The notes below the pieces were generated by a model, which saw only the letters and a program-made list of their open reading frames with translations, searched no databases and was not told the origin of the DNA. From contig JAIEMR010000095.1 in assembly GCA_019751935.1 (NCBI GenBank), positions 1 through 33,188 of the forward strand: a DNA stretch of 33,188 nucleotides, in the 5' to 3' direction. This DNA is from Alphaproteobacteria bacterium (GTDB lineage: Bacteria > Pseudomonadota > Alphaproteobacteria > Paracaedibacterales > CAIULA01). The position numbers were made by a program, and so were the translations under genes. Position 1 is the first letter of the stretch. Each line of letters starts with the position of its first letter. Shown piece after piece: positions 27,596 through 29,359 of this stretch.

Positions 27596-29359
27596 ATGAC
27601 AACTGTTACCCAGAAAACCAAACAAATTCTTGTGCTATGCGGGTCACTAATATTGACAGGATCTGCCTTTGCAGCCAGTAGCGGTGAGGGGGGTGATGAA
27701 AATGCACCGCCCAACACTCCTAGAACTACAGCCAGATTATTAACCTACCCCTCTCTTTTTAGTACAATTGGTAGCATGACAAATCGCATTGGAATTAATA
27801 GGGCGGTTAGAAATTTTTTTAGAGAGACTTACCCCGATGGCGTTGATTCAAAAGGATTGGATGAATTTAGGCAGCAGCTAGCAAGAGCGGGTTCTGGTGT
27901 AACTCCTTCTGTTTATGCGCATATTACTAACACACTTCTTCCTATGTATGCTTCACATATGGGGGAAGAGCCTAGTGGAGGCATCAAAAGAAGAGTGCCA
28001 TCATATGATGGTGATGATGAAAGAGACGGCTTTTCAAGAGCTTTGACTGTGAGGACGTCATCAAGAGCTCCTCGATCAATTTTGGGGGACATAACCGATA
28101 CAGTTGATGGAGCAATGTCTCCTTTGACTCTTCCTCCCCTTCTTCGTCTTCTAAGGGAGCCACGACCAGTAGTTCTTAGCTATATGGCAGAACCTTCCTC
28201 TCGAGGGAGGTCACGGTTAACATTGCCACCGATTACTGAAGAGTCTTCTTTTGTGGAGCCAGGTATCCGTCCTGCAACTTTTCTTTCTTCGATTCCATCT
28301 ATTTCGGAGGAGTTAAATAGAAGAATCATTGGCGAGGAGCCAGCAATGGCATCGCTTGCAACTGGCCTGCATGTTCATTATACGATTCAAGACGTTAATA
28401 GTACACTTGAGGCCCTTGGAAGATCTGTCCGTGTTCCTAAACAAAATATTTTTATGTGCGGACCAACTGGATGCGGTAAAACGGCTTCCGTAAAAGCTGC
28501 AGCTAAAAAACTAGGTAGAACCTTTTATGAGGCTGACACCAGCGGATTTACCAGGACAGGATATGTCGGAGATAGCGCTTCTTCAGTTATCATTGGCCTT
28601 ATCAAGGAAGCACAAAATCAAATTACAGACTTTGTTATAGGATCACCTGAATACAAGAGAAAGGTTATAGAACTTGTACAAAAAGGTATCGTGTTTTTAG
28701 ATGAATTTGATAAAATTGGTGCTAAAAAGTCTGGCGGTAGTGAGAGAGATATAGCGGGAACAGACGTTCAGTCTGAACTTTTGAAACTGATGGAAGGTAA
28801 AAAAATAACCGTAAAAGTTGACAAGGAAGACTATGCAATTGATACAACCGATATTCTCTTTATTGCAGGCGGGGCTTTTTCCTCAATTGAAAGAAAAGGC
28901 GGAGAACCCATTGGTCCAGATGCGTTTGTTGAAGCTGGATTTAGCGAGCAAGTCCTAGGACGTTTTGGTCGAAGAATTTTCTTTGAAGGCATGACTCCTG
29001 AAAAATTCGTAAGAATCCTTCACTCTGAAGAAGCATCCCCAATTGTCCAAAATTTATTGCTTTTACAAATGGGCTATGGGATTGACGTTAAATTTGATGA
29101 AGATGCTATGAGACTCATAGCTGAAAGAGGATATGCTATGCAAGCAGGTGTGAGGGGTCTTGCAACTATGGTGAATACTGCGGTTGATCCACTCATTCGC
29201 CGCAGTGAAGAGCTAAAAGGAACAACCTTTACAGTCGATAAAGCTTTTGCAGAGGCTAATCTTCCTAAAGTTGAGCCTAGAAAAAAGGCGGCAAAACCTT
29301 ATACTTTTGAAGACCATATTAGAGATCACCCCAGAGATGAGTATGGTTTTTATAGCTAA
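27596..29359 (+). CDS. ClpX/HslU-family AAA+ ATPase with an N-terminal signal peptide and a low-complexity extension
   Basis: AAGGAG lies 7 nt upstream of the ATG. Signal MTTVTQKTKQILVLCGSLILTGSAFA/AS. Residues about 30-235 are Pro/Ser/Arg/Gly-rich with two LTLPP motifs. Walker A GPTGCGKT (28460..28483), pore loop GYVG (28559..28570), Walker B GIVFLDEFDK (D369 and E370 at 28700..28705), ILFIAGGAF, and sensor-2 GVRGL. Confidence 0.8.
   Translation: MTTVTQKTKQILVLCGSLILTGSAFAASSGEGGDENAPPNTPRTTARLLTYPSLFSTIGSMTNRIGINRAVRNFFRETYPDGVDSKGLDEFRQQLARAGSGVTPSVYAHITNTLLPMYASHMGEEPSGGIKRRVPSYDGDDERDGFSRALTVRTSSRAPRSILGDITDTVDGAMSPLTLPPLLRLLREPRPVVLSYMAEPSSRGRSRLTLPPITEESSFVEPGIRPATFLSSIPSISEELNRRIIGEEPAMASLATGLHVHYTIQDVNSTLEALGRSVRVPKQNIFMCGPTGCGKTASVKAAAKKLGRTFYEADTSGFTRTGYVGDSASSVIIGLIKEAQNQITDFVIGSPEYKRKVIELVQKGIVFLDEFDKIGAKKSGGSERDIAGTDVQSELLKLMEGKKITVKVDKEDYAIDTTDILFIAGGAFSSIERKGGEPIGPDAFVEAGFSEQVLGRFGRRIFFEGMTPEKFVRILHSEEASPIVQNLLLLQMGYGIDVKFDEDAMRLIAERGYAMQAGVRGLATMVNTAVDPLIRRSEELKGTTFTVDKAFAEANLPKVEPRKKAAKPYTFEDHIRDHPRDEYGFYS

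Follow-up and report, generated by a model that had tools for sequence, protein, structure and literature searches.

A signal-peptide-bearing ClpX-like AAA+ protein with an HbYX-type C-terminal tail in Holosporales endosymbionts

The window analysed here, which is the entire 33,188-nt contig JAIEMR010000095.1 of an alphaproteobacterial source genome (G000; 1.81 Mb in 206 contigs, 72% complete), encodes a ClpX-like AAA+ protein of 587 aa that begins with a Sec signal peptide (27596..29359, + strand, ATG start; supported by the open reading frame (ORF) call, Pfam and NCBIfam matches and homologues). At the level of sequence, the protein combines an export signal, intact ATPase motifs, the loss of the ClpP-docking elements and a C-terminal tail of the hydrophobic-Tyr-X (HbYX) type, and the family to which it belongs is restricted to one lineage. 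It is best filed as a putative ClpX-clade (HCLR) AAA+ unfoldase that has been adapted to export and to another partner. Our preferred reading, which we put forward tentatively, is that of an exported, ClpP-independent unfoldase running on host ATP, most plausibly in the host cytosol, where the HbYX tail would dock the host 20S proteasome.

Export signal and AAA+ module

The Sec signal peptide is assigned to residues 1-26 (27596..27673, + strand) on composition and on the N-termini of homologues. It consists of a K-rich n-region (MTTVTQKTKQ, charge +2), a hydrophobic core (ILVLCGSLILTGSAF) that reaches a maximum of 2.64 in an 11-residue Kyte-Doolittle window, and the sequence SAFA/ASS, in which the AFA/A site is found. 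The mature protein is predicted to start at about A27 (cleavage between A26 and A27) and would be soluble; a hydropathy scan along the whole 587-aa protein revealed no second hydrophobic segment, and its N-terminus contains no lipobox. The start codon lies 7 nt downstream of a Shine-Dalgarno sequence, AGGAG (27584..27588, + strand), which agrees with the view of an earlier, sequence-only reading of this DNA that the start is well supported.

The same reading had described an n/h/c signal-peptide layout, and this layout is conserved across orthologues and the divergent family. The close orthologues P0001-P0005 (70-95% identity) and the distant ones P0006-P0011 (35-45% identity) all have a K/R n-region, a hydrophobic core (maxima of 2.4-2.8 on the same scale), small residues at -3/-1 and acidic mature N-termini, with no further hydrophobic segment in any of them. 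The architecture is likewise kept in the orthologues L016-L019 and in divergent paralogues (L020-L024 and L030-L033) from other genera and families. Since all orthologues and also divergent paralogues retain the signal peptide, the start is not mis-called; the orthologues, whose starts the sequence-only reading had proposed to check for an internal methionine, all begin upstream with the signal peptide. Freshwater metagenome contigs near-identical to the window span the start region of the gene, signal peptide included, which excludes an assembly artefact at the N-terminus. That the true start lies downstream of the hydrophobic segment is ruled out by the conserved signal peptide together with the freshwater population that has the same 5' end. 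In both exported clades, a conserved acidic motif, 'xEPP/APP', also follows directly on the predicted cleavage position (P0121, aa 27-45, and P0156-P0162 are examples).

The AAA+ module comprises a ClpX-type large domain without IGF and RKH loops (28292..29065, + strand; Pfam, alignment, Foldseek and motifs) and a small (lid) domain that resembles ClpB_D2-small (29075..29194, + strand; Pfam and motif mapping). Motif mapping placed, all on the + strand, Walker A GPTGCGKT at aa 289-296 (28460-28483), the pore-1 loop GYVG at aa 322-325 (28559-28570), Walker B IVFLDEFDK at aa 365-373 (28688-28714), the arginine-finger region LGRFGRR at aa 454-460 (28955-28975) and sensor-2 GVRGL at aa 518-522 (29147-29161), along with IIGEEPA at aa 244 and ILFIAGGAF at aa 420-428. 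Every motif of the ClpX/HslU-type set named in the sequence-only reading was thereby located, and Pfam (AAA/AAA_2, aa 281-434; ClpB_D2-small, aa 494-533) and NCBIfam agree with it. The best NCBIfam match is ClpX PRK05342, at 151 bits against a cut-off of 359; the scores for ClpX TIGR00382 (121.6 bits, cut-off 370.75) and HslU TIGR00390 (122 bits, cut-off 362) also lie below their thresholds. In Foldseek, the AAA+ module of the AlphaFold model best matches ClpX hexamer chains of ClpXP structures (E ~1e-21). Aligned with the canonical ClpX and HslU of the genome, the protein keeps all catalytic elements, namely Walker A and B, pore-1, the arginine finger and sensor-2.

ClpX is thus ranked first by both NCBIfam and Foldseek, and the window protein shares with it GPTGxGKT, GYVG, the DE Walker B, the arginine finger, the GAR sensor-2 and a ClpX-like spacing. 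Unlike ClpX, it has a Sec signal peptide, a four-helix N-domain, a Pro-rich linker and a C-terminal HbYX tail, and it lacks the zinc-binding N-domain, the IGF loop and the RKH loop. The alignment shows that the IGF/MGF loop used for ClpP docking is absent from the window protein and family-wide, and the segment between GAF and the arginine finger measures 26 aa here versus ~50 in ClpX and ~12 in HslU, as expected from the missing loop and shortened segment noted in the sequence-only reading. No RKHP, the hallmark of the loop that recognizes the ssrA tag, occurs in the window protein or any family member. The zinc domain, whose absence had also been noted, is represented in the protein and the family by neither a CxxC motif nor a PF06689 match, whereas the canonical matches carry 'CSFCGK'. 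Judged by its primary structure, a protein that has lost the IGF loop, the RKH loop and the zinc domain cannot dock ClpP in the ClpX manner.

HslU is also an HCLR-clade AAA+ protein and docks its peptidase by C-terminal residues, with no IGF loops, and some members of the exported family adjoin hslUV. The window protein differs from HslU in being exported, in ending with HbYX in place of the 'FIL'-type tail and in having no I-domain; the alignment shows that nothing is inserted between the two Walker motifs, in line with the earlier observation.

C-terminal tail and N-terminal domain

The protein ends in a conserved C-terminal tail, HIRDHPRDEYGFYS, with an HbYX-type end (..FYS) followed by the stop codon (29315..29359, + strand; homologues, model and motif mapping), the last residues being EYGFYS. 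An HbYX end is found in 41 of the 46 exported-family members (GFYS, GMYT, SMYS, MMYL and others), the remainder ending in hydrophobic-Phe-X, and in none of the 195 canonical ClpX and HslU proteins from the same searches, which end in ETA, KSA or, for HslU, FIL. In the AlphaFold model, the tail is flexible.

The HbYX motifs of PAN, Mpa and Rpt2/3/5 insert between the alpha subunits of the 20S proteasome and open its gate, and HslU docks HslV via a C-terminal tail of a different kind from HbYX. Like the window protein, the hexameric AAA+ unfoldases PAN (archaea), Mpa and ARC (Mycobacterium) and Rpt2/3/5 (eukaryotes) bear a C-terminal hydrophobic-Tyr-X tail. The AAA+ module of PAN and Rpt belongs to the classic AAA clade, whereas that of the window protein is of the ClpX/HCLR clade; PAN, Mpa and Rpt have a coiled-coil/OB N-domain where the present protein has a signal peptide and a four-helix bundle, and, unlike in those systems, the source bacterium itself lacks a 20S proteasome. 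Given that the IGF loop was lost and the HbYX tail is conserved, the family has probably been rewired from ClpP docking to tail docking of a proteasome-type peptidase. The sequence-only reading had considered the motor protease-independent, which is probably wrong, since the conserved tail points to a protease of the proteasome/HslV type, not ClpP.

Between the signal peptide and the AAA+ module, that reading had seen about 200 residues of low complexity. This holds for aa 121-232, a disordered Pro/Ser/Arg-rich linker (27956..28291, + strand; model and sequence) that is restricted to the close clade and contains LTLPP at aa 177 and 208, the pair 31 aa apart whose spacing had been given as about 30. 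It does not hold for aa ~43-120 (27722..27955, + strand; AlphaFold model and the domain folded alone), which form a conserved and confidently predicted four-helix domain (predicted local distance difference test (pLDDT) score ~85) with the motifs PPxTPRT, INRxVRxFIRE and LxEF family-wide. Foldseek with the domain modelled alone detected no relative of this fold in the PDB, and a search of the ESM Atlas with residues 27-260 returned only unnamed low-score clusters. The AlphaFold model has a mean pLDDT of 71, the AAA+ module (aa 233-575) being confident and the signal helix (aa 6-21) of low confidence.

Distribution and genomic setting of the family

In genome searches, full-length orthologues turned up solely in G001, G002, G004 and G008, all within the genus and family of the source genome. 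Shorter paralogues, L020-L024, come from further genera of the family and likewise start with signal peptides, and divergent proteins (~30% identity) in other Holosporales families combine a signal peptide with a ClpX-like AAA_2 domain and a ClpB_D2-small lid. A homologue search seeded from one of the divergent loci (L033) yielded 34 distinct members that are 39-91% identical, with N-termini that are essentially all signal-peptide-like; the few that differ seem to be truncated at this end. Named members come from Ca. Odyssella thessalonicensis, with two paralogues, and Ca. Paracaedibacter symbiosus, both of the Holosporales family Paracaedibacteraceae. In a survey of 401 alphaproteobacterial genomes from across the class, the family was present in two, both Holosporales.

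Tandem pairs of exported AAA+ genes were detected in three genomes: G027, contig C8 (L030:1713-3605 and L030:3804-5114, both on the - strand), G038, contig C205 (L031:4815-6353 and L031:3079-4461, both +) and G040, contig C19 (L032:1012-2469 and L032:2761-4086, both +). In two of them, the second member is degenerate (L030:3804-5114 and L031:3079-4461), with the Walker A variants GQEGCGKT and GQNGCGKT and no GYVG, but it retains both the signal peptide and a tail resembling HbYX (PGFYS), which suggests that the partners may form hetero-oligomeric motors. The pairs L030 and L031 adjoin canonical hslV-hslU, an adjacency that hints at an origin of the exported family by hslU/clpX duplication. Short exported paralogues are flanked in two genomes by a conserved neighbour without a Pfam match (L020:2531-3676, - strand, G003; L021:15-1013, + strand, G007), with the motif GSATGA...ECALWSLLGPVGVDVWAFDVF.

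The exported protein is an extra paralogue and no replacement of ClpX, because canonical ClpX, HslUV and the type VI secretion system (T6SS) ATPase ClpV are all present separately in the source genome. The canonical ClpX (L001, contig C173) scores 654 bits, above the cut-off, and carries both the IGF loop ('GAGIGFGAEV') and the RKH loop ('GGRKHPQQ'). The sequence-only reading had advised checking for a clpX elsewhere; with this gene found, the window protein is ruled out as the sole ClpX of the genome. The canonical ORF (L001:1459-2598, - strand) starts at a GTG on the contig edge and misses the zinc-binding domain as called, which is probably a truncation at the contig end and no real loss. 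HslV-HslU is encoded at locus L006, and a canonical ClpV/TssH scoring above the cut-off on contig C24 (L051), consistent with the reported conservation of the T6SS in Holosporineae (PMC11909080). This separate ClpV, the single AAA module and the signal peptide rule out that the window protein is the T6SS ATPase itself.

ClpP was not found in the 72%-complete source genome and is present in 12 of the 12 relatives searched. The search for exported peptidases, in which members were checked for signal peptides, covered a single protease family, PF00227; it detected no exported HslV or proteasome-type peptidase, every HslV copy in 13 relatives lacking a signal peptide. An Anbu-like protein of the proteasome-beta fold (weak PF00227 match, 252 aa, beginning MTVVIGIYCSDGIVIAADS) is encoded together with hslUV on contig C20 of the source genome (L046:895-1653, - strand, in the region C20:15584-17840), and this ORF has no signal peptide either. 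An exported HslV or proteasome partner in the bacterium is ruled out within that search.

In the window, the gene is preceded by tamB (23447-27088) and followed by dapD/dapE (29449-31419), with recR, an aquaporin gene and an enoyl-CoA hydratase gene also nearby. The TamB/dapD neighbourhood is common to a same-genus orthologue (L017) and is not kept across genera, where the neighbours are an ABC transporter and transposase, a cytochrome bc1 operon, or flagellar hook and GluRS genes. The TamB-domain protein (+ strand) has 1213 aa, a TTG start and a hydrophobic segment at its N-terminus. For the aquaporin Z gene (21006-21695, + strand), the 90%-identity cluster holds a EukProt transcript of the chrysophyte Chlorochromonas danica, which hints at, and does not prove, a protist host or a culture association of the lineage. 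An antisense ORF of 90 aa (29213-29485, - strand) overlaps the 3' end of the AAA+ gene and is probably spurious.

Possible locations and partners of the exported motor

Holosporales are obligate endosymbionts of protists. TLC ATP/ADP translocases are a hallmark of obligate intracellular energy parasites; they are antiporters of the inner membrane that take host ATP from the periplasm, and one is encoded in every sampled Holosporales relative. As these antiporters draw ATP from the periplasm and the bacterium lies in the host cytoplasm, the periplasm of these endosymbionts is expected to carry host-derived ATP. The premise of an ATP-free periplasm, from which the sequence-only reading had argued, therefore fails for this lineage, and the host cytosol becomes one possible destination of the protein, not the sole one, since the periplasm itself would be supplied with host ATP.

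Under the reading that we tentatively favour, a Holosporales-specific unfoldase of the ClpX clade would be exported via Sec with cleavage of its signal peptide, and the mature protein would assemble into a hexameric, ATP-hydrolysing ring with substrates threaded through its GYVG pore. The motor would be powered by host ATP and work beyond the bacterial cytoplasm. Once released from the bacterium into the host cytosol, it would dock the host 20S proteasome by the HbYX tail, open the gate and feed unfolded host proteins into it, for nutrition or for host manipulation. The host 20S is preferred as partner because no exported bacterial proteasome- or HslV-type peptidase was found. It is a further and unlikely step that the endosymbiont secretes an exogenous 20S 'proteasome activator', by which it would draw amino acids from host proteins or remodel the host proteome.

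Several points weigh against release into the host cytosol and docking there. No outer-membrane export route was found for a soluble protein exported via Sec. No GspD of the type II secretion system (T2SS) was found in the source genome, and exit through a T2SS was rejected, the sole secretin being an MshL-type pilus secretin. The protein may therefore stay periplasmic. The signal peptide is called from composition and from conservation across homologues. Expression evidence for the gene is a single 151-bp metatranscriptome contig. We infer docking on a eukaryotic 20S from the motif itself, just as we infer hexamer formation, ATPase activity, the final location and the proteasome partner.

With no outer-membrane route in sight, the protein could instead be a periplasmic ATP-dependent chaperone, unfoldase or disaggregase of the envelope, which would receive host ATP through outer-membrane porins and act on periplasmic or outer-membrane proteins, its HbYX tail binding some periplasmic partner or serving hexamer assembly. 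A signal peptide without a second transmembrane segment, the periplasmic ATP implied by the TLC translocases of all relatives, the missing T2SS-type secretin and the envelope or respiratory genes that adjoin in several genomes (TamB in the window) all fit such a role. We nevertheless consider it somewhat unlikely, as HbYX is a very specific proteasome-docking signature, the gene context differs across genera, and the PF00227 search revealed no exported protease partner.

A periplasmic counterpart of HslUV or ClpXP, in which the tail would dock an exported peptidase (an Ntn-fold enzyme outside PF00227 or another protease), would make use of both the conserved C-terminus and the HslU/ClpX-like AAA+ module, and the divergent members that adjoin hslUV (L030 and L031) suggest an origin by hslU/clpX duplication. 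No bacterial partner in the periplasm is evident, however, because the HslV copies of relatives carry no signal peptides, and the same is true of the Anbu-like ORF, which makes this arrangement improbable. Least probable, and in our view very unlikely, is an uncleaved amphipathic or membrane-binding N-terminal helix that would keep the protein in the cytoplasm or on the inner face of the membrane, where its tail would dock the bacterium's own HslV. The bacterium does encode HslV and the h-regions are only moderately hydrophobic (the maxima of ~2.4-2.8 given above), but the n/h/c layout, the positive n-region and the AxA site are kept in essentially all of the ~45 divergent members, HslU itself ends in 'FIL' and not in HbYX, and a canonical HslU is already present.

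The exported unfoldase that we propose resembles the Sec-dependent secreted effectors of Rickettsiales and Chlamydiae in its obligate intracellular lineage, its signal peptide and its lineage-restricted family, and differs from them in that none described there is an AAA+ unfoldase. To our knowledge, no described secreted effector is an AAA+ unfoldase. A literature search on secreted or periplasmic ClpX, AAA effectors and Holosporales secretomes found no described equivalent, in keeping with the lack of precedent stated in the sequence-only reading.

ATP-driven unfoldases are thought to be confined to the cytoplasm, the usual reason given being the ATP-free periplasm. The family described here would represent an exception based on lifestyle, in that bacteria importing host ATP across their periplasm could afford an exported AAA+ motor. 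If our reading is true, endosymbionts would have a novel means of exploiting the protein turnover of their hosts, and the family would provide a tractable model of partner switching by HCLR-clade unfoldases. True or not, it bears on what the Holosporales endosymbionts of protists may secrete to manage their hosts.

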